Source: an uncultured Alphaproteobacteria bacterium
GTDB taxonomy: Bacteria; Bacteroidota; Ignavibacteria; OLB7
Length of the DNA stretch: 64,000 bases
Assembly (NCBI GenBank): GCA_964462535.1
Contig: CAYWXV010000001.1
Span: 354,175-418,174 of the forward strand
Direction: 5' to 3'
Shown: positions 3,811-63,084 of the stretch, piece after piece
How positions within the stretch are numbered: the stretch's first letter is position 1
Layout: each line of letters begins with the position of its first letter
Translations under genes and position numbers: made by a program
The notes under the pieces: generated by a model
What the model was told of the DNA's origin: nothing
The model's database searches: none
The model's input: only the letters and a program-made list of their open reading frames with translations

Positions 3811-4520
3811 TCATCGTCGAGCAGAACCAGACGATCACCGGTCGTCTGTTCTGGCTTCCGCCCGCGAACCTCGCGAATGACGACGTCCGGCCGGTCGACA
3901 CGCGCACGATGGGGCATCGGTGCGCCTCGATGGTCACCGTCGTAGTAGTGAAGCGTTCGACCTCTAGTTGTCTGAATCATCAGGAGGGGCCCACGCCCCT
4001 CATCTTGCACGAACACCACCTCCCCCTTTCCCATTTCGCCTCGCTCCCCTGGGCTGAGCTGCGATAACACCAGTTCGAACGATGCAGTCGCAACAAGATG
4101 GTGACAGCATCGCGAAATGAATTCAACACCCGATGGCGCGCCCTGGTCCGACGGCATCATGATGGATATTGGAGTCTTTCGTCCGAGTACGCGTGAGTAG
4201 TTGACGAACGCACAGACACCCCTGGCGTACGAAACCGAGGCCGAGGTCAGGATGATCCCCCGGATTCCGAGGAGTCGTTTCAGTTTTGACTCCTGATACA
4301 ACGCCGACAACATATGTGAGGTCGGATTGATCAGAACGACAGCACCTTCGTACGCAACGAGTGTCCCGATGGTCGTCACGTCGTCCATCAGGAAGACTTC
4401 GGCGAGATGGCGCTTATCGAACCAGACTCTTTTCGTGAACATGTACCGGGCGATGAGAGAGATTGGATGTTCGCGGCTATCGACTATATCCGGTGCGGAC
4501 ACGATTCGGGGTGCTCGCAT
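3801..4520 (-). CDS. hypothetical protein (alpha/beta-like; possibly a degenerate MBL-fold relative)
   Basis: 239 aa ORF with non-repetitive, protein-like composition. Co-directional with and downstream of fur. No confident family match by eye. Confidence 0.4.
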   Translation of the reverse strand: MRAPRIVSAPDIVDSREHPISLIARYMFTKRVWFDKRHLAEVFLMDDVTTIGTLVAYEGAVVLINPTSHMLSALYQESKLKRLLGIRGIILTSASVSYARGVCAFVNYSRVLGRKTPISIMMPSDQGAPSGVEFISRCCHHLVATASFELVLSQLSPGERGEMGKGEVVFVQDEGRGPLLMIQTTRGRTLHYYDGDHRGAPMPHRARVDRPDVVIREVRGRKPEQTTGDRLVLLDDDQR

Positions 4521-5065
4521 TCGGCAAAGATCTGGAACGAATGATCCACAACTTTCAAGCCGGCCTTCTCGGCGACCTGTTTACGAATGCTGAGAAGCTG
4601 CGGATGAACGAACTCAGAGATGTGCCCGCAGATGACACAGATCAGGTGATCGTGATGCGGCTCATCAAAGCCGACTTCGTAGTAGCTCCGACCACTCCGG
4701 AAGTTGTGCTTGATGATCAAACCAGCCTTCTCCAACAGCTCCAACGTCGAGTAGACAGTGGCACGGCTGATCGACTGCTTGTCGACCACCATGGACGCAT
4801 AGAGCTCATCCGCATTGAAGTGACCAACACGATTCAGGACCGCGTCGAGAATCTTGTACCGCTCTGGCGTTGAGCGATAGTGCCCGTTTGCCAGAAATCG
4901 TTGAAAGGTCTTGAGCGCCTGCTGCTTCAACTCGTCACTAAGCACGCGATCCGATTCCAACAGAGCTTTCGACTCCAACTCGTCGACCGGGACTGAATTT
5001 TCCCTGTGGTCGGTCTGAGTTGTCTCGCGACGGACTGTGGTTCGCTGGGTACCTGCCTGTTTCAT
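4484..5065 (-). CDS. fur: Fur family transcriptional regulator
   Basis: C-terminal HHDHLICVICG...CEHPESCPH metal-site motifs and a winged-helix region (ERYKILDAVL). Carries a ~45 aa N-terminal extension, so the true start may lie further in. Confidence 0.85.
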   Translation of the reverse strand: MKQAGTQRTTVRRETTQTDHRENSVPVDELESKALLESDRVLSDELKQQALKTFQRFLANGHYRSTPERYKILDAVLNRVGHFNADELYASMVVDKQSISRATVYSTLELLEKAGLIIKHNFRSGRSYYEVGFDEPHHDHLICVICGHISEFVHPQLLSIRKQVAEKAGLKVVDHSFQIFAECEHPESCPHRI

Positions 5066-5086: not shown

Positions 5087-7462
5087 TCACGAACGGATGT
5101 GTGCGTGGGCCGAACCTGGTGGCATGGATGTGAGGCCCTCGGCAACCTGCTCGGGGGCGGCATCCCCAATGACGAGCGCAACTTCGCGACGCCTGCGAAC
5201 AATGGCAAAAGCAAATCCACCGACCATGATAATCACGCCGGCCCAGACGAAGGAGATGAACGGTTTGACCGACACGTCGACTACGACAACGGGTTTTGAG
5301 GGGGGTGATGGCCGCGAAGACGACTTGAATGCAAGCACAACCTGCGAGTTCGCGAGGTTCTCTTGATCGCTGACGATCCCGGCCATGCCGACCGAAACAT
5401 CGGTCCCCGCAATCTTTTTCGGAATATAGGCGCCTGTCGACATCACATATTCCGTGGTTACGAAGAACGAGGTATCGGGCCGCGTAATCTCCAGAATCGC
5501 ACTCTGTTTCCCCTCGGTCTGGGCTCGACTCATGTCGAAGCGCTCGAAGCGAACCGAGATTGTTGAGTCAAACGGAACAGCAGCCCGTTCGCCCTTGCGC
5601 AGCTGTGCAGTTGGGTCACCACCATCGTCTTCAAGAGCCTTCGGGGAAACGTAAATGTCTCTGGATGGGTAGTAGAGAATACCCGGCTCCAGGAAGGGCG
5701 TCTCGCGCTTGTTGAAGTCACTTAGAAAAGTGACGGGACCGACGGTGTACGTGTCGTCGCCCCGCTTCAGCACAATGTTGTGCCGGTACTTCTCACGATC
5801 GGTCTTCTCGAGTTCGGTCCTTTCGGGACCGGTATACGTTGCCGTATAGTCGAACACTTTGGTGGGGACACCCTGGACCAATCGAACGTGCTGTGTTTCG
5901 GTATACCGTGCTGTGAATATGATGCCGAGCATCATGAGCGAGACGCCGGCGTGCGAAATGTATGCACCGATGAATCGAGGGTTCCCTCGGACAACGCGAG
6001 CGCCAACTTGCGTGTTGACAACGATGGCCAGAATGGACCCGAAGCCCAACGCAAGGTAGATGGGATCCGCAACTCCAAGGGCGAACAATCCGATCGTCCC
6101 GAGCAACGCGATACCCCCAGCGATCCACATTCCCTTCGCGAATTCCTCCCTCTCCGTGTTCCTCCACTTCAAACGCATGCTGATGCCATTCAGAAGGACG
6201 ATGGCGAGCGCAATGGGTAGATGAAGGTTGTTATAGAAATCGGTGGGTACAGCAGCCTTTGGCTTACCTATGAGCGGCATGATTAGCGGCCACGAGGTTC
6301 CAATCAGCACGACCGTTGAGGACGCAAGCAGCACCGCCGATCCAATCGCCAACGCGTTCTCGCGTGACAATAGTGGGAAGCGAATTGGGGCCTGTTGAAG
6401 CTCCTTCCAACGCATCAGCAGCAGGCCGAAGCCCAGGCCCAGAAACGTGAGGAGAATCACCAGCAACACGAAGTAGACGAAACCACCCGGTGATACGAAG
6501 CTATGCACAGAGGTATCGCCTAGGACACCGGAGCGCGTCAGGAAGGTCGAGTACAGGATCAAGCCCCATGCGGCAACGGCCAGCGCAAAATTTGTCCGCA
6601 CCAGACCACCCACGCGCATCTGGTCGCCAGGCTTCCTCGGAATGGCCCCGGTCCGCTTCTGTACAAGCATTGTGTGAACAAGCGCGACGCATGCAAGCCA
6701 CGGTATCAGGCTCGAGTTTTCGACGGGATCCCACGCCCAGAATCCTCCCCATCCAAGCGTCTCGTAGGCCCACCATCCACCCAGCATGATTCCAAAACCG
6801 AGCGCCATCGACGCAAAGAGCGCCCATGGCAACGATATCGTGATCCATCGTTGGTAATCGCGTTTCAGTAGCCCTGCAACAGCGAAGACAAACGGGACCG
6901 TCATAGATGCGAAGCCGAGGAAGAGTATTGGGGGGTGAATCGTAATCCAGAGGTTTTCCAGCTGTGGATTCAGGCCTCTTGGGGTCGGAATGAAGTCAGC
7001 GGGGATCTTCTCGTCGGGGAACGACTGAAAGATCGTGTGAAACGGAGACTTCACCGTCAGGATGACGAGCAGGAGCGAAATCACAAGCATGAGGGGGATC
7101 ATGGTGTGTGTCTCGTACCCAACTCGCTGCGAGTAACTGTAGACGAAGATCCCGATGATGCAGGTCATCAGCGTCCAGAGCATGAAACTTCCCTCCTGCC
7201 CTGCATAGAAAGAGGCTATCTGGAGCGGGCGCGAAAGGTTGCCAGAGGAATGCTGGTAGATGTACGTGAACTGATACTGGTGCGACAGAATCAAATACAT
7301 CAGGTACGCCGAAGCGCCCAGGAACGTGACGACCGAGAGGTGGAAGCAGGTTCGCGCTACCTGAAGGTCGCGGTGATCCTGTCGTCGCAGCGTCAGTACA
7401 TACGCCACCAACGAAGCAAGCGCGGATGCCAGTGACGCGGAAATCGCGAATGATCCAAACAT
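5087..7462 (-). CDS. ccmF: cytochrome c-type biogenesis protein CcmF (heme lyase)
   Basis: 791 aa polytopic membrane protein. WWD domain WWAYETLGWGGFWAWDPVENSSLIPWL. The N-terminus follows the CcmF pattern (...QHSSGNLSRPLQIASFYAGQEGSFMLWTL). Confidence 0.85.
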   Translation of the reverse strand: MFGSFAISASLASALASLVAYVLTLRRQDHRDLQVARTCFHLSVVTFLGASAYLMYLILSHQYQFTYIYQHSSGNLSRPLQIASFYAGQEGSFMLWTLMTCIIGIFVYSYSQRVGYETHTMIPLMLVISLLLVILTVKSPFHTIFQSFPDEKIPADFIPTPRGLNPQLENLWITIHPPILFLGFASMTVPFVFAVAGLLKRDYQRWITISLPWALFASMALGFGIMLGGWWAYETLGWGGFWAWDPVENSSLIPWLACVALVHTMLVQKRTGAIPRKPGDQMRVGGLVRTNFALAVAAWGLILYSTFLTRSGVLGDTSVHSFVSPGGFVYFVLLVILLTFLGLGFGLLLMRWKELQQAPIRFPLLSRENALAIGSAVLLASSTVVLIGTSWPLIMPLIGKPKAAVPTDFYNNLHLPIALAIVLLNGISMRLKWRNTEREEFAKGMWIAGGIALLGTIGLFALGVADPIYLALGFGSILAIVVNTQVGARVVRGNPRFIGAYISHAGVSLMMLGIIFTARYTETQHVRLVQGVPTKVFDYTATYTGPERTELEKTDREKYRHNIVLKRGDDTYTVGPVTFLSDFNKRETPFLEPGILYYPSRDIYVSPKALEDDGGDPTAQLRKGERAAVPFDSTISVRFERFDMSRAQTEGKQSAILEITRPDTSFFVTTEYVMSTGAYIPKKIAGTDVSVGMAGIVSDQENLANSQVVLAFKSSSRPSPPSKPVVVVDVSVKPFISFVWAGVIIMVGGFAFAIVRRRREVALVIGDAAPEQVAEGLTSMPPGSAHAHIRS

Positions 7463-7482
7463 GCTCTTCTTCCTGTCCCGAA

Positions 7483-7845
7483 CTAGTGAATGGTCATGCC
7501 TGTGGCGTGAAAGTAGTCTCCGTGCGAATGCCCCGATACCGAGACGGACACCTTCCCCTTGTACGCATTCTTGATGTCGGCCACCGACACCGGATCCTGT
7601 CCAGCATACTGGACCCTCGATGCCGTCCCCCCTGCATCCTTCATTGTAAACACGAGATCGCCATCCGCGTCCTCGACCTGATCAGAGGCAATCGTGCCGA
7701 CGACGATCACCTTCTTCTTCGAGTCGTTTACGGAAGCGGCCTGGCTGAATGTGAGCTCCGGAATGTCGACCGTGGCCAATCCATACCACGTCGTCAGGCC
7801 CGCAATGAGCACGAACGCCACGATGAACACGCTTCTTCTTGTCAT
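7483..7845 (-). CDS. CcmE-like heme chaperone paralog (His-type, truncated immediately after the His)
   Basis: OB-fold core (VIVVGTIASDQVEDADGDLVFTMKDAGGTASRVQYAGQDP) aligns with CcmE. The C-terminus reads GHSHGDYFHATGMTIH-stop, so the protein ends at the position of the heme-binding His and has no downstream Tyr. Start taken at Met21 (7845) of the ORF to avoid overlap with the upstream paralog. Confidence 0.55.
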   Translation of the reverse strand: MTRRSVFIVAFVLIAGLTTWYGLATVDIPELTFSQAASVNDSKKKVIVVGTIASDQVEDADGDLVFTMKDAGGTASRVQYAGQDPVSVADIKNAYKGKVSVSVSGHSHGDYFHATGMTIH

Positions 7846-7861
7846 TACATTCCCGGTAGTG

Positions 7862-8257
7862 TCAGCTTCCACTCTGCTTCTCAAATCCGGACGCATCCGA
7901 CTCATACTTCGACGGGCACTTCGTCAGAATGCTGGAGCAATGGAATGTGTTGTTCTCGACATATCCCGTCGCAACCATTGAGGTCGCCAATTCAAAGTTG
8001 TTTGGCTTGGCACCATCGTACTGCACCTGCATTGTACCACCCTTGTCGTCCCGCATGGTGAACTGGAAGAGGTTGTTCTGTGAATCGTACTGAGTCCCCT
8101 TGTTCTTGACCCAGGTCCCTGCAATCTGGACTTTGCGACCAGTCGATGCTGCGGATACGAAATCGGAGTATTCGATCTTCTTGTTCTCTAGCGTCAACAC
8201 CGTCGTGACCACAACGAGCATTGCCGCCAGCATTCCTATTACATACTTCATTCGCAT
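7862..8257 (-). CDS. ccmE: cytochrome c maturation heme chaperone CcmE, CXXXY variant
   Basis: 131 aa. N-terminal TM anchor and OB-fold core. C-terminal motif LTKCPSKYE (C-P-S-K-Y) sits where E. coli has LAKHDENY, i.e. the Cys-type CcmE described for archaea and Desulfovibrio. Confidence 0.85.
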   Translation of the reverse strand: MRMKYVIGMLAAMLVVVTTVLTLENKKIEYSDFVSAASTGRKVQIAGTWVKNKGTQYDSQNNLFQFTMRDDKGGTMQVQYDGAKPNNFELATSMVATGYVENNTFHCSSILTKCPSKYESDASGFEKQSGS

Positions 8258-8278
8258 TGTTGTTCTCCTCGTGCTGAA

Positions 8279-8443
8279 CTACCGTACTGAATCGTGACCA
8301 TTCGCTTGCACCACACGTGCCAGACTCGATTCCATCTTGCGAAGCCTTGCGTCAAGGCGGAGCAGATAGAACAGGACCCCCAGCATTACGATCAATGCCA
8401 CGACCAGCGCGGCGAACATTGAGTGATCTATGAAGAACTGCAT
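8279..8443 (-). CDS. ccmD: heme exporter protein CcmD (small membrane protein)
   Basis: Not in the ORF track (54 aa). Hand translation gives MQFFIDHSMFAALVVALIVMLGVLFYLLRLDARLRKMESSLARVVQANGHDSVR: one TM helix followed by a basic tail, located between ccmC and ccmE as in canonical ccm operons. Confidence 0.5.
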   Translation of the reverse strand: MQFFIDHSMFAALVVALIVMLGVLFYLLRLDARLRKMESSLARVVQANGHDSVR

Positions 8444-8448
8444 CGCTG

Positions 8449-9576
8449 CTATACCTCATTCCGAATTGTTGAGTGTTCAATATCCTGCAGCTGTGGCGCT
8501 GAGGTCTCTCGATCCGCCTCTTCTCCGGCAATCACTCGTCGCGCAAGACGATGATTCGCAATGGCCATTCGGACCGATACATTCACCGTCCAGAAGAAGA
8601 GGAGCGAAATGCTGAGCATCGAGAGCCCAAAGAGAATCTGCTTTACTGGATTGAGGGCGTCGGTATCGCTCGAGAGCACGGGACCACTATCTCCGCTCCC
8701 CATCGATCCCGGATGCAAACCGGCCTCGGTTCTTGGAAAGATGAAGATGAAGTATACCACGGGTAGGGCCAGAAGAAGGAGATAGACGGCCGACAGCCGT
8801 TTGCGGAGTTCTTCATCGCTCAACGCCGAGCGGAGGGCGAAATAGGCAGCGAAGATCACAAGGGTCGCAAAGATCGACACCTGGCGCGGATCGAAACTCC
8901 AGAATTCACCCCATTGCAAACGGGCCCAGAATGAACCCGAGACGGTCGCCAGGACACAGAAGAGAAGCCCGGCGGCGGCAGTCCCGGCCGCCTTCAGATC
9001 GTCCTCGGCGTCCTTCTTCCTGAGGTAGCGCATGCCAAAGAACGCAGCCACAAACCATGCTAGCGTCGCCACCCATGCGGCCGGAACGTGGAAATAGAGA
9101 TTCCGGGCCGTCTCCTCCAGTTGAGCGTTCAACGGAATCGTTGCAAACGGATTGACGTCTGACACGCGGCGCGCGTGGAAGTACCCATCGTCTTCGACGA
9201 ATCGGGAAACAAGAATGACCACGTCGCCAACGCGAAAGGGGAATCGCCCAGCCTCAAAGATCTCCCCCTCTGGTACCACCTCGTCCGTCTCCCCTCTCGA
9301 GTCCTTCAACAGGATCGTCGGCCTGGTGGAGGTCGGTAGCTCAACGACCGTCCCCTTGATCGACATCTCCGCGGTCGCCCCCCTATTCTTGGCCACTCTC
9401 TTTGCTGCGCCAAAATCGCCACCTGTTGGAATCGTAAAGACGAGGACGACGAGTGCAACATTGAGGAACACCGTCATCCATCGCCACCACGATGGATTCG
9501 GTCGCGAGAGTCCACCGGGCCAGAGCCCCAACACAACCCCCAGAATCGTGCCACCGGCGATGATTAGCGCCTTCAT
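8449..9576 (-). CDS. ccmC: heme exporter protein CcmC with N-terminal CcmE-like OB-domain extension
   Basis: The C-terminal ~225 aa carry CcmC hallmarks (YFHVPAAW; WWD motif LQWGEFWSFDPRQ). The N-terminal ~150 aa add two TM helices and a soluble domain (MSIKGTVVEL...RVGDVVILVSRFVEDDGYFHARRV) that resembles the CcmE OB core but has no His/Cys heme motif. Confidence 0.7.
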   Translation of the reverse strand: MKALIIAGGTILGVVLGLWPGGLSRPNPSWWRWMTVFLNVALVVLVFTIPTGGDFGAAKRVAKNRGATAEMSIKGTVVELPTSTRPTILLKDSRGETDEVVPEGEIFEAGRFPFRVGDVVILVSRFVEDDGYFHARRVSDVNPFATIPLNAQLEETARNLYFHVPAAWVATLAWFVAAFFGMRYLRKKDAEDDLKAAGTAAAGLLFCVLATVSGSFWARLQWGEFWSFDPRQVSIFATLVIFAAYFALRSALSDEELRKRLSAVYLLLLALPVVYFIFIFPRTEAGLHPGSMGSGDSGPVLSSDTDALNPVKQILFGLSMLSISLLFFWTVNVSVRMAIANHRLARRVIAGEEADRETSAPQLQDIEHSTIRNEV

Positions 9577-9582
9577 TTGGTA

Positions 9583-10257
9583 TCAGTCTCTCCAGAGATA
9601 GTCAAACAGGAAGTATCCAACGATAATGATTGCTGCGCTGTAGGCGGCCAGGAGCGCGATGTCGTCGCCGAGACTGGAAAAGGCGACCACCGACACCGTT
9701 CGGCGTATCAGGTCGACGCCAAGCAGAATTGTTGGCAGCAAGACCGGGAAGGCAAGGACAGGATACAGGGCCCCCTTGGCGCCGGCGCGAGCGATCAACG
9801 CCGCAATGAGCGTGAGTGCGCCGGCAAACGCAAAGCTCATCAGCACAACGACAAGAGCGAACGGAAGCGGAGATCCGATGCCCCGATCCGCAATCATGAT
9901 CGCGAAGAGGAACGCGAGGGCCCCGTTACCCAGCACGGCCAGAATGAGGTTGACACCAAGCTTTCCGACGAAGACGGGCGTGGGAGGAAGGAGGTGACGG
10001 AGCAGAAGCGAGGTCCCACGCTCCTCCTCGCTCACAAACGTCCGGGCGAGTCCGGTAACACCGGTGAAGAACATCGCGGTCCAGAACAGACCGGCTATAA
10101 CACCATTCGACAGACGTTCGCCCCAAGAACCAAAGGCCATAACGGAGACCACCACGACCACGAACATGCCCAGGGCATTCAGCGCATATCGGGTCCGAAA
10201 TTCGCCTCGTAAGTCCTTGCGTGCGACCGCAAGTGATTGCCGGAGGAGGGATGGCAT
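9583..10257 (-). CDS. ccmB: heme exporter protein CcmB (ABC permease)
   Basis: 224 aa, six TM helices, typical CcmB length and hydrophobicity. Immediately upstream of ccmC on the same strand. Confidence 0.75.
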   Translation of the reverse strand: MPSLLRQSLAVARKDLRGEFRTRYALNALGMFVVVVVSVMAFGSWGERLSNGVIAGLFWTAMFFTGVTGLARTFVSEEERGTSLLLRHLLPPTPVFVGKLGVNLILAVLGNGALAFLFAIMIADRGIGSPLPFALVVVLMSFAFAGALTLIAALIARAGAKGALYPVLAFPVLLPTILLGVDLIRRTVSVVAFSSLGDDIALLAAYSAAIIIVGYFLFDYLWRD

Positions 10258-10488: not shown

Positions 10489-12543
10489 CTACCGCATTAC
10501 TTCAACCGCGCTCGACTCGACATATCGCCCACCCACCGAAAGCACGATGAAGTATCTTCCTGCACCTGCGCTACGCCCCAATCCATCGTTCCCATCCCAT
10601 CGCGTCGAATAGGTCCCACGACGGTGCTCGCCACAAACGAGCCTGCGAACAATCTGGCCGCGAATGTCGACCACGGTGAGGTCAACCAAACCTGACTCGC
10701 CTGCAACATAGCGTACTTCGGTCCCCTCCGTGAGCGGGTTGGGTACACACGATTCGATCCGCGTCGGCCCCAAGGAGATATCCTGCTCGAGCACGCCAAT
10801 CGTGTACCGGCCGAACAAACGTCCATACCCGGCCGCCAGAGAGTCGGCGAGGTCAAGATCGGAGCGCTCGTTCCACAGCCCGTAGTACCGGTCCTGCGTT
10901 CCGAACGCGGGCGCCTCCGGCGTGGAAGCGGCGGAGTTGCGTGAGCCCCGTCCATTCCGATGGCAACTTTCCGAGCACGTATTCAGCATTCCTCCTCTGA
11001 AATCACCGGCGTAGTCCAACGTCAGCGATGGAGGGAGCACTTTGAATCCGTGACTACTGAACTCGTACAGCCGTTTACCTGGAAGATCGACGAACCCGAT
11101 TGAGGCCGTCTTGGTGAAATGGCAATTGACGCACTGGGAAACCGCCTGATCGTGTTGTGAATGTAGGTTGACGATTCGGCCACCCCTCGCGAGGCTTGGC
11201 CCCGTGTCCCTCATGTCCGGGTGGCACGCACCGGCAACACAACCCGCGTTGGAATCAAGGCTATACCAGTTCCGGTTGAGCTGATACGGCAGCTCACCCC
11301 CGAACGAAGAATCGTATTTGTTGAAGTGAATCGTGTGACAACTCCAACATCCATTCGAGAAGACCTGGCGCGAATGGGGGACCGAAGTCCTGTAGTCCTG
11401 TCCCGTCTGATGATGCGCATACGAGGTGGTGTTATCGGCCCACGTCTGCCTACCGGTCACGGAATCCCGTCTGAACTGCCCGAGGGACACGCCTGGGACA
11501 TAATGTTGTGGTGTCGCATCATCGTACGCGAATGGATGCTTCCCCATCGTCGAAACGTATCGTTCGTGGCACTGGCCGCACAGATCAAGCTTGAGTTCCG
11601 TCCCCATGTACGTTCCGGGGAATTGAGCACTCTTGCCGGGTGACACAATGTTGTCTGACGTAGGTTGGGCAACGTGTTGGGATCCAGGTCCGTGGCAACT
11701 CTCACACCCGATCACGATGTTGGCATCGCGGGCCATCGAATCGGTCCCATACGATCCAGGATACTGGACGGTGAACACGTCGGCCGTATCAGCACGATCC
11801 ACCGTCAGCGTCGCGCCGTTCACATGACACGGGGCGCACGCCTCGTGCCAACTCTGCTTCCTGAATGTCGGAGACGTGAACTCGTAAAACCTTCCTTCGC
11901 CGGTGAGCGTGTCGATATCGAACCACCTCTTGAAGTCGAGGAAATAGAATGCCCCACCGTGCTCCGACCGCTGCTTGTAACCCGGGAGTGCGAATTGAAA
12001 TGGTGGGATATAGTAGCGGCCATCAATATCGACCAGGAATCTCTCGATCCAGGCACGCCCTCCGTATGTATACGCGACCCTCATGGGTGGCGTCGAGTCG
12101 CCCCCCCCGCTGAAGGACAATTGTATGGCGTAGTCCCGACCAATCCCCTGCTTGAAAAGTCGGATTCTGAGTGTGTCGCGTCCCGGGTAGCGAATCTGCA
12201 CGACCGGGGTAGAAATCATAGTGTCGCGCTCAAACATGCGGTCCAGTATCACCGTCTCAGGTGTTGGACGGAGATGGATCTGCTGGTGCACGGTCTGCTT
12301 GAAGAGGACAAGACCCTTGTAGTCGCTCGTCCCGGAGTAGCCTGCGAAGTGGCAGGCGGCAGTGACGCAGGTCTGTTGTCCAACGTACTCGCTAGGGCCG
12401 GGTCCGTCGAACGACTGCAGGGTGGTTACCCGGGTCAGCAATGCTGCGCCCGTCACCAACCCAACAAGTAGGATGAGCCTGTTCAATGTCACGACGTGTT
12501 TGTTCGAGCTACAGGCATGCGCCTTAACGAAAGAGGGACGCAT
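10489..12543 (-). CDS. octaheme c-type cytochrome with T9SS C-terminal sorting domain (paralog A)
   Basis: Signal peptide, five CXXCH motifs (CAPCH, CESCH, CGQCH, CWSCH, CVNCH), two CX4CH (CVTAACH, CVAGACH) and one CX3CH (CSESCH). C-terminal type-A T9SS CTD (CVPNPLTEGTEVRY...GTYSTRWDGNDGLGRSAGAGRYF...VEVMR). Confidence 0.8.
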   Translation of the reverse strand: MRPSFVKAHACSSNKHVVTLNRLILLVGLVTGAALLTRVTTLQSFDGPGPSEYVGQQTCVTAACHFAGYSGTSDYKGLVLFKQTVHQQIHLRPTPETVILDRMFERDTMISTPVVQIRYPGRDTLRIRLFKQGIGRDYAIQLSFSGGGDSTPPMRVAYTYGGRAWIERFLVDIDGRYYIPPFQFALPGYKQRSEHGGAFYFLDFKRWFDIDTLTGEGRFYEFTSPTFRKQSWHEACAPCHVNGATLTVDRADTADVFTVQYPGSYGTDSMARDANIVIGCESCHGPGSQHVAQPTSDNIVSPGKSAQFPGTYMGTELKLDLCGQCHERYVSTMGKHPFAYDDATPQHYVPGVSLGQFRRDSVTGRQTWADNTTSYAHHQTGQDYRTSVPHSRQVFSNGCWSCHTIHFNKYDSSFGGELPYQLNRNWYSLDSNAGCVAGACHPDMRDTGPSLARGGRIVNLHSQHDQAVSQCVNCHFTKTASIGFVDLPGKRLYEFSSHGFKVLPPSLTLDYAGDFRGGMLNTCSESCHRNGRGSRNSAASTPEAPAFGTQDRYYGLWNERSDLDLADSLAAGYGRLFGRYTIGVLEQDISLGPTRIESCVPNPLTEGTEVRYVAGESGLVDLTVVDIRGQIVRRLVCGEHRRGTYSTRWDGNDGLGRSAGAGRYFIVLSVGGRYVESSAVEVMR

Positions 12544-12609: not shown

Positions 12610-14607
12610 CTATCTCACGAGCACTACTTGCTCCCCGGTCATCACACCGTTGGAGCTGAGCATTCGAACGAGGTAGGTGCCATTCGGGAGCATATGCCCT
12701 CCGTCGTCAGACCCGTACCACACGCACGTATAGGTGCCCCGGTCATGATCGGAGGCGATCAGCGTTCGAACACGCGCGCCGTTCGTGTTGAATATCTGTA
12801 TGGAGACGGCGCCCGGAACGGTAACGTCGTAACGAATCTCGGTCCGGTTCACCATAGGGTTCGGCGCGATCGTCTTGAGACCAGACCCACCACCCGCATG
12901 CGCGGAAAGACGCACACCTCCGACACTCGGCCAGAAGTCCTTGTAGTACTTCAGCAGCGAGTCAGCCAACCTCTTGTCCGTGATCTCTCCCCACAGCCCG
13001 ATTAGCTGGTCGTTGATACCGAACGAAGGAGCGACCGGTGTCGAGTCTGCAAAATTCCTCGAACCCCTGCCATTGCGGTGACAGCTTGCCGCACATGTGT
13101 TCATCATTCCAAGACCACCCGTGTTGAAGTAGTCTATCGTGATCTGAGGCGATAAGACGCGGAAGTTGTGGTTGCTGAACTCCTGAAGTGGCTTCTGCGG
13201 CAGATCGACGAATCCAATGGATGCTGTCTTGGTGAAGTGGCAGTTGACGCATTGCGATATCTCCTGCGCGTGTTGCGTGTGGAGATTGACCATCATGCCG
13301 TTGCGAAGAGGGCTCGGCCCGACCTCGCGCTTATCAGGGTGACACCCGGACGCAACGCATCCCTGGTTCTCGGCGAGACTATACCAGTTCCGATCAAGCT
13401 GGTAGGGTAGTTCCCCGCCAAACGAGGAGTCATACTTGTTGTAGTGAACAGTATGACAACTCCAGCAGCCGTCCGAGAAGACGTGCGCCAGGTAGGGTTT
13501 CGAGAAACGGAAGTCCTGACCCGTCTGGTGGTGCGCGTACGACGTGACCCCATCCGGCCACCTGTTCATTCCGGTCAGTGAGTCCTTCTGGAAGAGTCGG
13601 AGCGATGAGCCTGGGATAAATGGCTGATCGTTGACTTCATCGTATGCAAAGTTATGTGTCCCACCCGTCGACTTGAACCGCTCGTGACATTGCCCGCAAA
13701 GGTCAAGCTTGAGATCGATGCCGGCCGGCGTCCGGGGAAACTGGCTGCTCTTACCCGGGGAGACAATGTTCTCGGCGGTTGGATTTGCAACGTGCTCCGA
13801 TCCGGGCCCGTGACAGCTCTCGCACCCGATCAGGATGTTCTCGTGCAAGGCCAGAGAATCGGCTCCATCCGATCCAACGAAGTTGAGCGTATAGATCTTC
13901 GCTGTATCACCATCCACGTACGAACGCGTCATACCGTTTATGTGACACGAGGCGCATTGCTCATCCCATGCCTGCTTCTTGAAGGTCGTGGAGCCGAACT
14001 CGTAGAAGACCCCCTCCTGGTTTGACTGGTCGATGCCATACCACTTGCTGAAGTCCAACCAGTAGAACCAACCACCTGTGTCTGCCCGCTCCTTGTACCG
14101 CGGAAGCGAATACTGGAACGGCGGGACGTAATGCCGGCCATCGACTTCGACCAGGTATCGTTCAATCCATCCGCGACCGCCGTAGGTAAATGCCACCTTC
14201 ATCGCGGGCGTGGAGTCACCGCCACCAGAAAAGAAGAGCTGTACGTAATAGTCCTTCTTGTCAGGACTCTTGAAGAGGCGGGCGTTCAACGTGTCGCGTC
14301 CAGGATATCTGATCTGAACGATCGGCGTCGAGATCACCGTGTCCTTGTCGAACATCCGATCGATCACCACCGTCTCTGGTGTTGGGCGCAGGTGAATCTG
14401 CTGATGGAGGGTCTTCTTGAACTCGGCCAGCCCCTTGTAGTCGCTGGCACCGCTATACCCCGATTCATGACAATTGGCCGTGACGCACGTCTGCTGACCC
14501 ACGTATTCACGAGGCGCAGGTCCAGGTTTCGAGTCCACGCTGAACGCGAACGCAGCAACGCCTGCGACGGCGATCGCAAGCGACGCAAGAAGTTTGGGAC
14601 GTTTCAT
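12610..14607 (-). CDS. octaheme c-type cytochrome with T9SS C-terminal sorting domain (paralog B)
   Basis: About 70% identical by eye to paralog A over long stretches, with the same eight heme motifs (CVTANCH, CASCH, CESCH, CGQCH, CWSCH, CVASGCH, CVNCH, CAASCH). Signal peptide MKRPKLLASLAIAVAGVAA; the start is trimmed to that Met (14607). T9SS CTD ends ...NGTYLVRMLSSNGVMTGEQVVLVR. Confidence 0.8.
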   Translation of the reverse strand: MKRPKLLASLAIAVAGVAAFAFSVDSKPGPAPREYVGQQTCVTANCHESGYSGASDYKGLAEFKKTLHQQIHLRPTPETVVIDRMFDKDTVISTPIVQIRYPGRDTLNARLFKSPDKKDYYVQLFFSGGGDSTPAMKVAFTYGGRGWIERYLVEVDGRHYVPPFQYSLPRYKERADTGGWFYWLDFSKWYGIDQSNQEGVFYEFGSTTFKKQAWDEQCASCHINGMTRSYVDGDTAKIYTLNFVGSDGADSLALHENILIGCESCHGPGSEHVANPTAENIVSPGKSSQFPRTPAGIDLKLDLCGQCHERFKSTGGTHNFAYDEVNDQPFIPGSSLRLFQKDSLTGMNRWPDGVTSYAHHQTGQDFRFSKPYLAHVFSDGCWSCHTVHYNKYDSSFGGELPYQLDRNWYSLAENQGCVASGCHPDKREVGPSPLRNGMMVNLHTQHAQEISQCVNCHFTKTASIGFVDLPQKPLQEFSNHNFRVLSPQITIDYFNTGGLGMMNTCAASCHRNGRGSRNFADSTPVAPSFGINDQLIGLWGEITDKRLADSLLKYYKDFWPSVGGVRLSAHAGGGSGLKTIAPNPMVNRTEIRYDVTVPGAVSIQIFNTNGARVRTLIASDHDRGTYTCVWYGSDDGGHMLPNGTYLVRMLSSNGVMTGEQVVLVR

Positions 14608-14804: not shown

Positions 14805-15683
14805 CTATCGGACTACAGTCAGGCGCCGTGAGAGCGTCCGACCACCTTGAGACATCACGTAAATGTACTCCCCCGCGGGGAGTGATGAAACTACGACGTC
14901 CACTGAGAACGAACCGGGCTCGACGAAACGATCAAACGCTGTCAGCAGGCGATTGCCGGCAAGGCCGAACAATTTAATTGTCACTTGACCCGACTCTTTC
15001 ACAGCGAAGGGAATCATAGTGTTTCGGCTACATGGATTTGGCAGATTCTGCGCCAGTGACATCCCAGTGGGAGGCGCCGAGTCCGTATCCGCACTGGCCG
15101 GCTGCGTATCGATCGTGACGGTGTTGTCACCATCGAATGAGGCGCGGAACTTCCGTAATCCATTCCTGACTGTGCCCGTTCTGGGGGCATCGCGATCGCC
15201 CGCCGGTGGTGTGATCCATGTCCCATCGGGCTCAAAGTTGCTCCCCTGATGACAACAGTGGAAACGGAACTCGAGCGGATCGAAGCTCACCTGGTAATCA
15301 TTCCCATGCGGACAGTACGTTGAAACCGCCGTGAACGCATTCTCCCCCACATCCGCGACACGTGTCACCGCTATCGGGTACCATCCTCTCTTGCACGAAA
15401 ACGCCTCGGTCTCGGCTCTCAACGACGCGGATCCGAGCTCCACGTGATCCGGGTTCAGCAGGAGTTCCTCATCTCTGATCAGTTTGATTGACCCGCCCAC
15501 CTGCGCGAGATCAGGGTAATCGCTCAACCGGATCTGAATCAGCGTGGACAGCTTTCCGGGCACGTCGCCTGGTAGTGAAAGCCGTCCCAGCACGACACCG
15601 CGCGCTGCAACGGAGACGACCACAAGACCGGCAGCCCGCTTGAGGAAGTCCCGTCGGGAATCATCGGCAGTATTCTCCTTCAT
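14805..15683 (-). CDS. Rieske-like [2Fe-2S] domain protein with Tat signal and T9SS C-terminal domain
   Basis: Twin-arginine signal SRRDFLKRAAGLVVV. Rieske-like box I CPHGN; after 15 residues comes HCCHQGSNFEPDG, where a canonical protein would have CPCHGS. C-terminal T9SS CTD (LAQNLPNPCSRNTMIPFAV...GEYIYVMSQGGRTLSRRLTVVR). Start trimmed to the Met preceding the RR motif. Confidence 0.55.
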   Translation of the reverse strand: MKENTADDSRRDFLKRAAGLVVVSVAARGVVLGRLSLPGDVPGKLSTLIQIRLSDYPDLAQVGGSIKLIRDEELLLNPDHVELGSASLRAETEAFSCKRGWYPIAVTRVADVGENAFTAVSTYCPHGNDYQVSFDPLEFRFHCCHQGSNFEPDGTWITPPAGDRDAPRTGTVRNGLRKFRASFDGDNTVTIDTQPASADTDSAPPTGMSLAQNLPNPCSRNTMIPFAVKESGQVTIKLFGLAGNRLLTAFDRFVEPGSFSVDVVVSSLPAGEYIYVMSQGGRTLSRRLTVVR

Positions 15684-25539: not shown

Positions 25540-28389
25540 CTATCGATGGATCACCAGACGGGAACGGAGACGTTGTGAGCCGCTGCTGGCCTGGACGACG
25601 TACGCCCCCGGTGCAAGCGACGCCAGGTCCAGAGTACAATCGAACGATCCATCGTCGCGTGCGCCACACGTGGCGTTCATTACCTCGCGTCCAAAAAGAT
25701 CGAGGACGACGACCTCAACAACGAGCGCTCGCTGGAAAGCGCCCGTTATGATCGCAGACTCGTGCGCCGGATTCGGATAGAGGGACAACCGATTCTGCAG
25801 GCGGTCTGCCTCGTTGCCTACCGACGACGGCTGCCCGAACTCGACGTCGTCGACGTACCAGCCGTCAGCGTTGTTGAACGACCCGGTCTGCAGACGGAAT
25901 CGCACGAGCAACATCGAGGGTGATGCGGGAGGGACAATGCGTTGCCGAACTGGGAGCCAATCTCCAGCGTCGGCGGTGCGATCACCCCAACCCGCTTGGT
26001 CCGTCAGGCGATACCGTGCCAAGACAGTCCACGTAGCGCCGCTGTCATACGACACCTCGGTCACGGCCGAATCGCCCGCATCCACGATAGCTATCGTGTT
26101 AAAGGATAGTTCGATCGGTCCGTTGGCGACAACCGGCCAGATCCACGAGGAGGTATTGAGGCGTGGTTTGTAGTCACCCTGGGGGGAGTCAGTCCATGAA
26201 TGCGTCCCACTGACCGCCACCGTGGTTGTCAATCCCCACAGCGAATCAGTTCGAAAGCGAGGTTGTTCTCCTTCAAACGTCACCAGATAGGAATCGAACG
26301 ACCCGACGTATGCCAAAACCGTCTCCGAGCTCCGGCTCACATTCGCGGGGGATGCGCCGTCGGAGACCGTAGCCGAGTAGCGATAGTAGCCCCGTGACGG
26401 CGGCACGTCGGTCATCGTGATGGTGGACCCAGTATCAGACGTGGCGAGCGTTCGAGTCTCTATCGCGACACCGTCACGGTACAGCGTTACGCTCGCCAGG
26501 TTTTCGAGGGGAGAGACTGAATCCCCCCGTCGGGTGGGGAGCATTAGGTCGATCGATGAACTCGTCGCGAAGCGGTCGTAACGTTGGATAGCAGGTCCCA
26601 GGGGTGGCACCAGATCCCGTGGAATGTAGCAGACAGTGCTTACACCGCTCGTGTCAGTTTCAGTTGCAGCTACAACGCGGTACGTGTAGATCGTATCCAC
26701 CGATAGACCGGAGTCATCGTATGACCGCGTGGTTCCCGGGACCGTGCCAACAATTGCACCATCTCGGTATATCACAAACGACAAGTCGGATATCGGCTTC
26801 CCGAACAGGCTTCGTGACACATCACCGTACGCCCACGACAAGTGTGCCTTGTCGCGCGCATCCAGCCGACTTCCTACTGTCAGGTTTTCAACCGGCGCCG
26901 GAGTGTTGATGCCAACAAGCGACGTGTAGACATCGTTGTCGTCGCGCGTATCCAGGTATGATGGGTAGATCTTCCCTGCATGAAATGCGTTGCCCGAGTA
27001 GTCGCCGGCGAAGATCCTGCTTGTGTAGGGGTTGTTCCTGAAATCCGAACGCGTGTCCGTTGCGCGCCTGTCGATCCACGTCTCTCCCCCGTCGGAGCTG
27101 TATGACACGTATTGATCGATGAGGATGTTGTCGGGATCATCGCGGCTGTCGGAGTACATGACCGCTACGTCTCCGTTCGTCTGATCGACCGATATCCACG
27201 GCCACCACTGATCACCACGCGATTCAGAATGAACGACACGGGGCGCCGACCACGAGGCACCTTTGTCCGTGGACTTCTGGAAGAAGACATCAGGATTCGT
27301 ACCGGCCGCCCAACAGAGGTACAGGGTCCCGGCCCTTGGCGACGGTGAATTATCGACGGCAAGCGTCGGATATGATTCAGCACGAAACGTTTGCTTCAAC
27401 ACGTGATAGATGCTCCCAGCAGCACCTCGAGCCGTGCCATGTGTTGCATACGAGCGCACCACGTACGTCGGGGCGGTCCACGTCACGCCCGCGTCGCTCG
27501 ACCGCGCGAAGCCAATGGACCGGGCAGGGCCGTCGTTCCACACGACGTACACCGTACCGTCCGGACCCGTTGACATAAGTGGAAAGCTCTGCCCGAACGT
27601 CGTGTCGAGGCTCGTCCCCGTCTTTCGCGGACTGACGGGAATCGGTGCCGACCAATTCAGGCCCCAATCCGTCGACCGTGACATCATGATCTGCGTCGAG
27701 CTGTCGCGGTCTACGACCCTTTTCCACGGCGTGTACATATACCCACGGAATGGTGACGACGCGGAGTTGTCAATCTGGATGTAGTACTTGTCCTCAAACG
27801 CGGAGTCGGCCGTCATCGTACCCACGTGTTCAATCACCGGGATATGTGCTTCCCAGGTCTCTCCGTTGTCCGTTGAACGGGCAACGTAGATCCCCGACTG
27901 TCCCCCCTTACCCACGGTAAACGGCGGGAACGCACCGTACATCAGGTAGGCCCGCCCCAGGTAATCCCACGCAACTGAAGGGTCGTTGCCGGAGAGCCAG
28001 TTCGGTCGCACGTCACCAAGGTTCTTATTCCTCCACGACCGCCCTCCGTCGCTCGATACGTAGACGAAGGCCCCGGTCCTCGCATCCACTGCCGACGAGA
28101 TGAGGTAGTTAGGTGCAATCGGATTCACCGCGATCGACGACTCGTTCTGAGGAAACTGGTTGCTCGCAGGCTCATCGATCATGTTCCTGTTGACATAATA
28201 CCATGTGGTCCAGGAGGTTGACGACGATTGCAGCCACGGCCGGCCATCCCACTTCTCCTTTCGTTGCTCCCACTCGGGATCCAATGACGGGCGCGCCCGC
28301 TCGGCGTGATCTGGGCGTGCTACGTCTTGCCCATAGGAAATTGAGCTCGCTAGCAGGAGAAGTGCGGTGAAGAGGAGCCGGTTGCGCAT
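25540..28389 (-). CDS. BNR/Asp-box repeat (sialidase-like) protein with FN3-like region and T9SS C-terminal domain
   Basis: Signal peptide MRNRLLFTALLLLASSISYGQ; start trimmed to this Met at 28389. At least seven S-x-D-x-G-x-(T/S)-W Asp-box repeats (SSDGGRSW, STDNGETW, STDWGLNW, SSDAGVTW, STDKGASW, SSDGGETW, YDSGATW). T9SS CTD ...LSLYPNPAHESAIITG...GAYVVQASSGSQRLRSRLVIHR. Confidence 0.8.
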   Translation of the reverse strand: MRNRLLFTALLLLASSISYGQDVARPDHAERARPSLDPEWEQRKEKWDGRPWLQSSSTSWTTWYYVNRNMIDEPASNQFPQNESSIAVNPIAPNYLISSAVDARTGAFVYVSSDGGRSWRNKNLGDVRPNWLSGNDPSVAWDYLGRAYLMYGAFPPFTVGKGGQSGIYVARSTDNGETWEAHIPVIEHVGTMTADSAFEDKYYIQIDNSASSPFRGYMYTPWKRVVDRDSSTQIMMSRSTDWGLNWSAPIPVSPRKTGTSLDTTFGQSFPLMSTGPDGTVYVVWNDGPARSIGFARSSDAGVTWTAPTYVVRSYATHGTARGAAGSIYHVLKQTFRAESYPTLAVDNSPSPRAGTLYLCWAAGTNPDVFFQKSTDKGASWSAPRVVHSESRGDQWWPWISVDQTNGDVAVMYSDSRDDPDNILIDQYVSYSSDGGETWIDRRATDTRSDFRNNPYTSRIFAGDYSGNAFHAGKIYPSYLDTRDDNDVYTSLVGINTPAPVENLTVGSRLDARDKAHLSWAYGDVSRSLFGKPISDLSFVIYRDGAIVGTVPGTTRSYDDSGLSVDTIYTYRVVAATETDTSGVSTVCYIPRDLVPPLGPAIQRYDRFATSSSIDLMLPTRRGDSVSPLENLASVTLYRDGVAIETRTLATSDTGSTITMTDVPPSRGYYRYSATVSDGASPANVSRSSETVLAYVGSFDSYLVTFEGEQPRFRTDSLWGLTTTVAVSGTHSWTDSPQGDYKPRLNTSSWIWPVVANGPIELSFNTIAIVDAGDSAVTEVSYDSGATWTVLARYRLTDQAGWGDRTADAGDWLPVRQRIVPPASPSMLLVRFRLQTGSFNNADGWYVDDVEFGQPSSVGNEADRLQNRLSLYPNPAHESAIITGAFQRALVVEVVVLDLFGREVMNATCGARDDGSFDCTLDLASLAPGAYVVQASSGSQRLRSRLVIHR

Positions 28390-28561
28390 TGCGGGTCGCG
28401 GAAATGAAGTGGGAGGAGAACGCGCATCGCGGGGATGACCCCGGTACGCACCAAGGGGTTGGGTGTCGTTGAATGTACACCGGCGGGTGTCCTTGTCAAA
28501 GCCGACACCGCGGCAACAGAGTTGATCACCACGTGGCGCAGGCGAATGCCTATATTCGGGC

Positions 28562-29080
28562 ATGCATCGGATCAACTTCGCCCGAAACGCGGGTCTCCCT
28601 TCTATAGATGCCGGCTCGTTGAGATCGGCCTTGCGACAATTCGCGTCCGGAGTCACAATTGTCACTGCGGCGCATGAAGGAACGCTTTCAGGAATCACAG
28701 TCTCGGCGTTCAGCTCGATCTCACTAGAACCGCCGATCGTCATGGTCTCCATCAACAGCGAAAGCTCGCTCGTCGAGAACCTCCTTCAAGCGGAACATTT
28801 TGGAGTGAACGTGCTCCATGCATCTCAGGAGGAGCTTGCGCGGCGGTTCGCAGAGTCCATCCCCCCCAACGAAAAGTTCGATGGAGTGCAACTCGAGTTC
28901 GGCCGCAGTGGAGCACCGCGAATTGTCGGCGCCGTTGCCTGGCTCGATTGTGTTCTCGATCAGTCATTGAGAGTCGCAACGCACACACTGATGTTTGGAC
29001 GCGTTGTGGAGACGGTTACGCTCGACCATCCGGACGACCCCCTTCTCTACTACTTCAAGCACTATCGTCGACTGGCCTGA
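28562..29080 (+). CDS. flavin reductase family protein (NAD(P)H:FMN oxidoreductase domain)
   Basis: 172 aa. FASGVTIVTAAHEGTLSGITVSAFSSISLEPPIVMVSI is typical of HpaC-like flavin reductases. Confidence 0.75.
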   Translation: MHRINFARNAGLPSIDAGSLRSALRQFASGVTIVTAAHEGTLSGITVSAFSSISLEPPIVMVSINSESSLVENLLQAEHFGVNVLHASQEELARRFAESIPPNEKFDGVQLEFGRSGAPRIVGAVAWLDCVLDQSLRVATHTLMFGRVVETVTLDHPDDPLLYYFKHYRRLA

Positions 29081-56035: not shown

Positions 56036-56081
56036 AGGTATATTCTTGATCGATCTTTCCTGGTTGTTCCTTGCGAAGGAG

Positions 56082-56096
56082 GCCCAATATAGCCCT
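56082..56096 (-). promoter_or_regulatory. conserved 15-mer GGGCTATATTGGGC-containing element upstream of the E1 gene (promoter -10 candidate)
   Basis: The exact 15-mer gcccaatatagccct is shared with 41042..41056 upstream of ssb. It contains a TATATT -10-like hexamer and lies 47-61 nt upstream of the E1 start. Confidence 0.35.
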
Positions 56097-56136
56097 CGCA
56101 CATCCAACCTGCCACGTTCACTCAGTAACGGCCCGC

Positions 56137-60202: not shown

Positions 60203-60284
60203 GGAGGGCTCGCATAATGGTATTGCAGCGGTCTTGAAAACCGCCGGGCGCAAGCCTGTGGGGGTTCGAGTCCCTCGCCCTCCG
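60203..60284 (+). tRNA. tRNA-Ser (anticodon TGA)
   Basis: Hand fold: acceptor ggagggc/gccctcc, D-arm, anticodon stem gcggt/accgc with loop cuUGAaa (U33, A37), a 15-nt variable arm (type II), T-arm ggggg-ttcgagt-ccctc, discriminator G. CCA is not encoded. Lies inside the N-terminus of ORF 60162..60956. Confidence 0.85.
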
Positions 60285-62579: not shown

Positions 62580-63012
62580 GTCGGAGTCGGTCGGGCAGTC
62601 GCCCGGTTGGGCATCGAGCGCAATCGGGAGGAACGTCCGAACTCCAGGGGCAGCGTGCCGGCTAACGGCCGGGCGTCCAATCCGGGTGTGCCACGCGCAC
62701 GCACGGAGAGACGACGGAAAGTGCAACAGAAAACATACCGCCTCCTTCGGCAACGCTTGGGGGTAAGGGTGAAATGGCGAGGTAAGAGCTCACCGCGTCA
62801 ACGGTAACGTTGGCGGCATTGCAAACCCCACGCGGAGCAAGGCCAAATAGGGTGTCGTAATGAGGACCGCCCCCTTCTTCGTCCGGCCTTTGCGGCTGGC
62901 CGAACGGCACCGGGTAGGCTGCTCGAGGCCGCGAGCAATCGTGGTCCCAGATACATGACTGCCTCCGGGTACGCGCACGACGCGTCTCGCAGACAGAATT
63001 CGGCGTACAGAC
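62580..63012 (+). ncRNA. rnpB: RNase P RNA, bacterial type A
   Basis: Conserved blocks are present: gggaggaacgtccgaactcc (P4 5' strand), acagaaaacataccgcc, gggtaagggtgaaatggcgaggtaagagctcaccg, caaaccccacgcggagcaaggccaaatagggt, and agacagaattcggcgtacagaccggcttcgac (P4 3' strand plus P1). P4 shows compensatory changes (CCGAA/TTCGG against E. coli CCGGG/CCCGG). The P1 strands gtcggagtcggtc and gaccggcttcgac pair with each other. All overlapping ORFs on both strands are short and low-complexity. Confidence 0.85.
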
Positions 63013-63084
63013 CGGCTTCGACACTTCTTTGTTCTGGTTCGCGGCGGTAGTTGGAACACTCCCGCGATCACCAACCACCTACCC

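Follow-up and report, generated by a model that had tools for sequence, protein, structure and literature searches.

A Rieske-like protein with a predicted twin-arginine signal and a type IX sorting domain, encoded next to octahaem cytochromes in an uncultured bacterium of the Ignavibacteria lineage

Introduction

The canonical Rieske motif reads CXH-Xn-CXXH (PMC4433239, PMC9400863), and the cargo of type IX secretion (the T9SS) is described in reviews as carrying signals of the general secretory (Sec) pathway and as crossing the outer membrane in the folded state (PMC9251779). Proteins with a signal for twin-arginine translocation (Tat) are dropped by the cargo predictor T9GPred, which demands "no Tat signal", since 0 of the 102 experimentally known cargoes carries one (PMC10515386). 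Some Tat-exported proteins are described as undergoing further secretion in other bacteria or by other systems (PMC4899797). The present study concerns a gene in which these three elements come together. It lies at 14805..15683 on the minus strand of a stretch of 64,000 nucleotides (hereafter the window; positions 354,175 to 418,174 of contig CAYWXV010000001.1, assembly GCA_964462535.1) from an uncultured bacterium assigned to the lineage Bacteroidota; Ignavibacteria; OLB7. An initial annotation had proposed that it encodes a Rieske-like protein with a Tat signal and a T9SS C-terminal sorting domain (CTD), and this observation was confirmed, as all three parts are found within the one protein.

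From our point of view, the product is probably best regarded as a divergent Rieske-type metalloprotein that would be exported by Tat and then by the T9SS to the cell surface, where it would work together with the octahaem cytochromes encoded beside it, a reading to which we assign a probability of roughly 50%. We first describe the protein and the conservation of its putative metal site, and then weigh this reading against its alternatives.

Results

The open reading frame (ORF) starts with ATG, ends with a stop codon at 14805-14807 and encodes 292 amino acids; the same protein, but beginning six codons further upstream (P0001), is recorded from an NCBI assembly (552-kb contig) and from several sequencing runs. 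Four segments can be delimited, all on the minus strand, namely a predicted Tat signal peptide (residues 1-33, 15585..15683), a Rieske-fold domain (residues ~46-195, 15099..15548), a low-complexity linker with low predicted local distance difference test (pLDDT) values (residues 196-214, 15042..15098) and a T9SS type A CTD of 78 residues (residues 215-292, 14808..15041). The G+C content of the gene (57.9%) hardly differs from that of the window (57.8%), and a recent horizontal acquisition was rejected on these grounds. A scan for promoters and terminators around the gene returned nothing above shuffled expectation.

Conservation was assessed in a family set of 33 distinct sequences with 32-50% identity to the window protein. 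These were collected by a search of 5.8 billion proteins (13 matches), from a representative library, from genome and metagenome scans and from the ORFs of fetched loci. The domain-alignment scans contributed seven loci from genomes and three from metagenomes, all belonging to the clade with C-P-H in the second box (CPH clade), with the genome of the window itself lying outside the species representatives that were scanned. Both cluster boxes, the positions of which were checked against the nucleotide sequence, stand out in this set. Box I (C124-P125-H126, 15306..15314) has the pattern C-x-H in 33/33 sequences, and H126 is separated by 16 residues from the cysteine of the core C143-x-H145 of Box II (H142-C143-C144-H145, 15249..15260), which reads on as -Q-G-S. 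The C-x-H spacing of Box II is kept in 32 of the 33 sequences, with C-L-E-H in the remaining one, and C124, H126, C143 and H145 are invariant across the set. The intervening residue varies, with CCH in the clade of the window protein and CPH or CSH in the rest.

The initial annotation had singled out Box II as an atypical HCCH box. It is indeed atypical, and conserved as such, but the conserved core is C-x-H, and the leading H142 is shared by the window protein with one other sequence only. The further suggestion that the second cysteine might be ligating found no support, as the invariant cysteine is the first of the pair and C144 is confined to the CCH clade. As neither H142 nor C144 is conserved among the 33 sequences, both were rejected as ligands. 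C144 instead covaries with Cys97 (15393..15395), which lies in the insertion xCKRGWYP found in the CCH clade only: Cys97 is present in 8/8 sequences with C144 and in 0/25 without it. This strict co-occurrence suggests a clade-specific C97-C144 disulfide. A second family-specific element is the motif L-N-P-D-H (residues 76-80, 15444..15458), located where the Rieske fold carries a helical insertion. Within the motif, N77 and D79 do not vary and H80 hardly does; it could represent a further ligand or a site of partner contact.

When aligned by HMMER, the family sequence 'vCcHqeS' matches 'eCPCHGS' of solved Rieske proteins without a gap, so that the ligand cysteine and the trailing serine keep their register and the loop length is unchanged. 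In this alignment the Box II histidine of the family falls in the column of the canonical disulfide cysteine, that is, it is shifted by one position, and the canonical histidine column is occupied by Q, R, L and other residues. The Box I disulfide cysteine (of CTHLGC) is likewise replaced, by a conserved Tyr or Phe (Y130 in the window protein). The canonical disulfide that bridges the two loops (CTHLGC ... CPCHGS) has thus no counterpart, its columns holding Y130 and H145. Judged from the alignments, Box II departs from the defining C-x-x-H in a conserved way. In Rieske structures, the canonical Box I reaches both irons with a C-x-H spacing. Since this box already contacts both irons in such a way, a pseudo-symmetric cluster site made of two C-x-H boxes appears plausible from the sequences.

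Because the Rieske and the Tat label both rest on profile matches below threshold, independent support was needed for each. With regard to the fold, a full-length AlphaFold2 model (13 homologues in the alignment) reached a pLDDT of 73.6 and a model of the domain alone (17 sequences) one of 83.7 overall, with blocks above 90 across residues 46-195. In a Foldseek comparison of the domain model with the PDB, the best 50 matches were all Rieske domains, with the cyanobacterial plasma-membrane PetC3 at the top (5cxm, E 1.3e-4). They included the Rieske soluble domain of Chlorobaculum tepidum (8hn2, target TM-score 0.64, root-mean-square deviation 4.2 Å), the small subunit of arsenite oxidase (TM-score 0.57-0.60), kuste4569 (9rk4), b6f and bc1 subunits, and Rieske ferredoxins and oxygenases. 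The same Rieske proteins were matched by the family profile among PDB sequences, at marginal E values of 0.05-0.2. Across 14 family members, the Pfam Rieske profile PF00355 gave E<=0.01 in 7/14, with a best value of 1.2e-4. As such, the models support the assignment of a Rieske fold, as initially annotated, whereas membership at the level of hidden Markov models (HMMs) is not supported. In the comparison with the Rieske HMM that had been proposed as a check, the score stays below gathering; in the alignment with solved Rieske proteins, Box I and the Box II cysteine fall in the ligand columns.

The proposed twin-arginine motif was confirmed. The stretch S9-R-R-D-F-L-K15 (15639..15659) matches the consensus S/T-R-R-x-F-L-K at all seven positions, RR is present in the 31/31 relatives that have an N-terminus, and no other ORF of the window carries [ST]RRxF[LI]K near its start. 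The n-region with SRRDFLK is followed by the h-region AAGLVVVSVAA and then by (P)-x-x-V-L-G|R, of which LG[RK] is conserved. The family-wide form of this segment, P(-6)-x-x-[VTI](-3)-L-G(-1)|[RK], is compatible with a presumed site for signal peptidase I after G33; cleavage straight after the A-x-A-like stretch is unlikely in the homologues, as a proline follows there. A misassigned start codon that would remove the RR motif was considered and rejected, since RR occurs in all relatives with an N-terminus and no candidate start is closer to it than 5 or farther than 14 residues. A start at ATG 15701 or TTG 15728 would merely extend the n-region, and the homologues begin 5-8 residues before RR.

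The CTD, too, was borne out. TIGR04183 (T9SS type A) matches residues 215-290 of 292 with 24.8 bits, above its cut-off of 23, and was matched by 14/14 scanned family members (best E 6.3e-11); the score of PF18962 (Por_Secre_tail) on the window protein, 18.3 bits, lies below the gathering score of 27. In the AlphaFold2 model, the CTD forms an immunoglobulin (Ig)-like beta-sandwich of seven strands with pLDDT 76-88, for which Foldseek returned the CTD of mirolase (8qb1) and DUF3244, and the family profile also matches the solved Por sorting domain 8glj_D. Four family relatives of 177-204 aa carry the RR signal and the domain and end before any CTD. In view of these proteins, the CTD is best seen as an added sorting module. 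Four other proteins of the window bear a CTD, which makes five in 64 kb: two cytochromes (see below), a BNR-repeat protein of 1071 aa (25540-28755, minus strand; 28.8 bits with Pfam, reaching the gathering score of 27) and an S8 subtilase (peptidase; 56071-58221, plus strand). The N-termini of both cytochromes and of the S8 peptidase are of the Sec type. Together with the NCBI names of the cytochrome relatives (see below), the five CTD-bearing proteins may indirectly point to T9SS machinery in the genome. The Rieske-like protein carries a twin-arginine type signal instead of the Sec signal of T9SS cargo, and the initial annotation rightly called such a Tat-dependent cargo unusual, given that cargo is held to be Sec-dependent (PMC9251779) and that Tat-signal proteins are excluded by T9GPred (PMC10515386).

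The combination is not restricted to the family. A profile of the full-length alignment gave 402,135 matches among 1.84 billion representatives, dominated by the CTD, and about 80 of the best 150 of these have an RR motif, a Rieske-like core and a CTD in roughly 250-270 aa (this wider group lies within P0030-P0152). In these proteins, Box II reads C-x-x-H in ~45 (many showing the complete canonical disulfide pattern CTHxGC...CxCH), C-x-H in 23 (for the most part members of the present family, with two cases independent of it), C-x-x-x-H in six and C-x6-H in two. The segment P-x-x-[VIL]-L-G-[KR] after the h-region is common to the wider group. Judging from these sequences, the combination of an RR signal, a Rieske domain and a CTD recurs among uncultured bacteria of Kapabacteria-, Ignavibacteria- and Chlorobi-like type. 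Database names of the relatives are limited to 'Rieske 2Fe-2S domain-containing protein' or hypothetical protein. In two fetched loci (L027, 5844-8389; L028, 3353-4659), a canonical gene of this architecture has another, small Rieske gene downstream of it (142-165 aa) that lacks a CTD, and in L027 a gene for a CCP/MauG dihaem peroxidase lies upstream of the canonical one. In many members of the wider group, the signal region also contains the tripeptide 'C-P-H' (…ACPHILLGK…), which might represent a lipobox-like cysteine.

With regard to the genomic context, the Rieske-like gene is followed on the minus strand by two octahaem c-type cytochromes, namely cytochrome 1 (12610..14607, 665 aa from ATG 14607), which has a signal of the Sec type and a T9SS/FlgD-Ig-like CTD, and its paralogue cytochrome 2 (10489..12543; 58% identical), which also has a CTD. 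No terminator-like site was found in the scan between the Rieske-like gene and the first cytochrome. In each cytochrome the haem motifs number eight, three of them being non-standard (two CX4CH and one CX3CH), and both are weakly similar to OcwA, OmhA and NrfA. Their family comprises ~100 clusters, with members in metagenome-assembled genomes (MAGs) of Kapabacteria, Chlorobi(ota) and Ignavibacteriae that NCBI names 'T9SS type A sorting domain-containing'.

In every locus examined (window, L002, L017, L019 and L021-L023), this cytochrome family adjoins an operon for cytochrome c maturation (Ccm). In the window it spans 5087..10257 on the minus strand and comprises ccmB (9583-10257), ccmC (8449-9576), a ccmD-like gene (8279-8443), ccmE (7862-8257), a conserved ORF of ~140 aa that overlaps the end of ccmE (7483-7905) and ccmF (5087-7462), an order shared by L002, L017 and L021-L023. 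The ORF between ccmE and ccmF has a counterpart of about 120 aa without a Pfam match in related loci, and its product may be a Ccm accessory protein that is so far uncharacterised. The distal end of the cluster carries a gene for a regulator of the ferric uptake regulator (Fur) family (4484..5065, minus strand), which is also present in L002, L021 and L022 and hints at metal-responsive control.

The order glycosyltransferase, Rieske-like gene, cytochrome with CTD and ccm recurs in L002, L017 and L019, the Rieske-like proteins of which are 47-50% identical to that of the window. In an Ignavibacteriae MAG (L023), a family member in divergent orientation (35% identity, RR, Box II C-S-H, CTD) stands directly upstream of a cytochrome pair and ccm. 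The link with the cytochromes is hence recurrent (five lineages, two arrangements), but it is not universal. The neighbourhood of the window from RuvB to FtsK is syntenic with L021 (a Chlorobi-labelled MAG) and L022 (a Candidatus Kapaibacterium MAG), and the window is assigned to their group on this basis. In these two loci, a tblastn search of the gap between glycosyltransferase and cytochrome found no remnant of the Rieske-like gene; a decayed copy in these relatives was accordingly rejected. The Kapaibacterium genome of L022 holds CPH-type copies elsewhere (L007).

The CPH-clade genes of Kapabacteria loci are preceded by a gene for a 2Fe-2S thioredoxin-like ferredoxin and by a small CTD-only ORF. 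The latter always precedes the CPH-clade gene (7295-7711 in L001, 7243-7656 in L003, also L004-L008, L010, L025 and L026) and encodes ~137 aa, in which an N-terminal signal (SRRGFIRK in L003) is joined to a T9SS CTD by a short linker and a passenger domain is missing. Either decay of a paralogue or a function as a CTD-only protein could explain it. Several genomes also have the Rieske-like gene as two paralogues in tandem (8001-8831 and 9200-9988 in L001, likewise in L007, L008 and L004), both copies carrying RR, the two C-x-H boxes and a CTD. Elsewhere in the window, on the plus strand, lie a bacterial RNase P class A RNA (62583-63023, 271 bits) and one tRNA (60203-60284).

Discussion

From the motifs and the extent to which they are conserved, and from the fold prediction and the synteny described above, we infer cluster binding, Tat dependence, signal and CTD cleavage, secretion and a redox partnership, which could be connected as follows. 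The domain would fold in the cytoplasm and take up its cofactor there, most likely a [2Fe-2S] cluster on C124/H126 and C143/H145, held by two C-x-H loops rather than by C-x-H plus C-x-x-H. The SRRDFLK signal would route the folded protein via Tat, a route that fits because the cluster would be inserted in the cytoplasm, and would be removed, probably after the conserved V-L-G33. In the periplasm, the type A CTD would be recognised, the folded protein would pass through the T9SS translocon across the outer membrane and the CTD would be clipped; it is the presence of the CTD that makes this second step fitting. At the surface, the protein would exchange electrons with the two co-encoded T9SS-sorted octahaem cytochromes, which are expected to take the Sec route, to receive haem from the Ccm proteins encoded just downstream and to follow through the T9SS. 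Together, they might make up a module for extracellular electron transfer, which the Fur gene could place under the control of iron.

Several observations weigh against this reading. On the side of the profiles, PF00355 scores 16.4 bits (E 0.0089) on the window protein and thus remains below its gathering score of 20.3, and the Tat-signal profile TIGR01409 reaches 15.0 bits against a cut-off of 16.7. The uncharged h-region has about 17 residues with a central proline in the homologues, but only 11 in the window protein, since R28 replaces the conserved proline of the family. With regard to the metal site, Box II takes the form C-x-C-H in every solved Rieske protein of the alignment, a Rieske protein with a C-x-H Box II was not found in the literature searched, and we know of none. 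The spread of Box II spacings in the wider group (one, two, three or six residues) could moreover signal a relaxed or altered metal site. Lastly, the CPH-clade genes are not adjacent to cytochromes, and in L021 and L022 the cytochrome-ccm locus is present but the Rieske-like gene is missing from it. For these two reasons, the partnership with the cytochromes is not an obligatory one.

The points on the metal site also feed the alternative that survives best, although we consider it unlikely, namely that the Rieske fold was kept while its metal site changed. The two cysteines and two histidines would then bind a single Zn, Fe or Cu ion or play a structural part, and the protein would be a secreted binding or adhesion module. 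Such a change would be in line with the departure of Box II from the defining C-x-x-H, with the plastic spacing in the wider group, with the sub-threshold score of the Rieske HMM and with the extracellular setting, which is generally harsh for Fe-S clusters. However, none of the four ligand positions varies, and 31/31 relatives have the Tat signal, which fits a cofactor that is loaded in the cytoplasm. Relatives of the same architecture in the wider group have the fully canonical CTHxGC...CxCH, and the gene is linked to cytochromes and a Ccm operon; these points speak for a cluster-binding protein as well.

It is also conceivable, if decidedly unlikely in our view, that the protein is secreted as proposed and that its adjacency to the cytochromes reflects gene order only, so that it acts alone or with other partners. 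The CPH clade seems to do so, as its members in Kapabacteria stand beside the ferredoxin gene and the CTD-only ORF, and among wider relatives the place of the cytochromes is taken by a second small Rieske protein; the intact cytochrome-ccm loci of L021 and L022, with neither gene nor remnant, point in the same direction. Yet the adjacency persists in four lineages at 47-50% identity, and it recurs in the other orientation in the Ignavibacteriae MAG (L023), which argues for the partnership.

A further possibility is that the Tat signal remains uncleaved, as in the Rieske subunits of bc1 and b6f complexes. In that case it would anchor the protein in the inner membrane on the periplasmic side, and the C-terminal beta-sandwich would be a structural Ig-like domain rather than a functioning signal for secretion. 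It is established that respiratory Rieske subunits retain their Tat signal as a membrane anchor, and the proline that blocks cleavage after the A-x-A-like stretch in most homologues, the sub-gathering PF18962 score of the window protein and a weak match to UCR_Fe-S_N would agree with such an anchor. We nevertheless regard it as improbable and disfavoured, given that the hydrophobic stretch, with 11 residues in the window protein and about 17 around a central proline in the homologues, is short and resembles a signal peptide more than a transmembrane segment, that the conserved segment up to G33 fits signal peptidase I, that TIGR04183 passes its cut-off with 14/14 members matching, that no cytochrome b gene lies nearby and that the CTD-less relatives mark the tail as an added module. 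A subunit of a bc complex in the strict sense was rejected, because no cytochrome b gene was found near the Rieske-like gene in the window or in the loci L002, L017 and L019.

If Tat export followed by the T9SS is taken one step further, the family, together with the wider group of RR-Rieske-CTD proteins, could constitute the first natural class of Tat-dependent T9SS cargo, in which a pre-assembled Fe-S protein crosses both membranes to the cell surface and joins, through a pseudo-symmetric C-x-H/C-x-H Rieske centre, T9SS-sorted octahaem cytochromes in an extracellular electron-transfer chain of Kapabacteria- and Ignavibacteria-like bacteria. This wider proposal is tentative, and we consider it possible but doubtful. 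Searches of the literature for a Rieske protein or a multihaem cytochrome combined with the T9SS returned nothing relevant, and neither did those for Rieske proteins with extracellular electron transfer and Ignavibacteria or for Kapabacteria with multihaem proteins. Likewise, the searchable literature held no description of a Rieske site with two C-x-H boxes, of a Tat-dependent T9SS cargo or of a T9SS-sorted Rieske or multihaem protein.

Among described systems, the small Rieske proteins of the bc1/b6f type (Synechocystis PetC3, 5cxm; C. tepidum, 8hn2; Kuenenia kuste4569, 9rk4) come closest in fold (Foldseek E 1e-4 to 5e-4, target TM-score 0.5-0.64). They too have an N-terminal twin-arginine signal, and their ligand columns are matched by Box I and the Box II cysteine of the family. 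In contrast to them, the window protein has C-x-H instead of C-P-C-H in Box II, lacks both disulfide cysteines, is encoded without a cytochrome b partner, carries a T9SS CTD and shows marginal sequence similarity (E 0.05-0.2). If the site does hold a cluster, the Rieske motif would tolerate a C-x-H second box, and the family would offer a natural test of the influence that the spacing of the ligands and the disulfide of the loop have on the stability and potential of the cluster. The wider group of RR-Rieske-CTD proteins shares the architecture and the N-terminal P-x-x-x-L-G-[KR], but it differs in its mostly canonical C-x-x-H, in the lack of LNPDH and of the Cys97 insertion and in its neighbour, which is a second small Rieske gene and not an octahaem cytochrome.

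With the T9SS type A cargo of Bacteroidota (gingipains, mirolase and Flavobacterium cargo), the window protein shares the C-terminal beta-sandwich with TIGR04183/PF18962 at the extreme end, whereas its signal is of the twin-arginine and not of the Sec type, and its passenger is a redox protein of the cofactor type. A Tat-then-T9SS example was not found in the literature searched. The closest logic is that of the exoproteins of Pseudomonas aeruginosa which pass through Tat as folded, sometimes cofactor-loaded proteins and then through an outer-membrane system that accepts folded substrates, that of type II secretion (T2SS; PMC4899797); the outer-membrane step considered here would differ in proceeding via the T9SS and in being signalled by a cleavable CTD. 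Should this hold true, the T9SS would accept Tat-exported, cofactor-loaded passengers, and cargo predictors that discard them (PMC10515386) would miss a class.

Fe-S clusters are reportedly carried to the outer surface by the Shewanella DmsAB proteins, which are said to use Tat and then the T2SS. As for surface electron transfer by multihaem cytochromes of metal-reducing bacteria (OcwA, 6i5b; OmhA, 6qvm; the MtrC/MtrF family), the weak matches (E 0.002-0.016) are to the neighbouring octahaem proteins and not to the Rieske-like protein. These octahaem proteins are also predicted to lie at the surface, but would get there via a T9SS CTD and not via the T2SS or an S-layer association. Overall, a surface Fe-S protein that works with T9SS-sorted octahaem cytochromes would, if the reading is correct, amount to a new design of extracellular electron transfer in a little-studied and mostly uncultured lineage.

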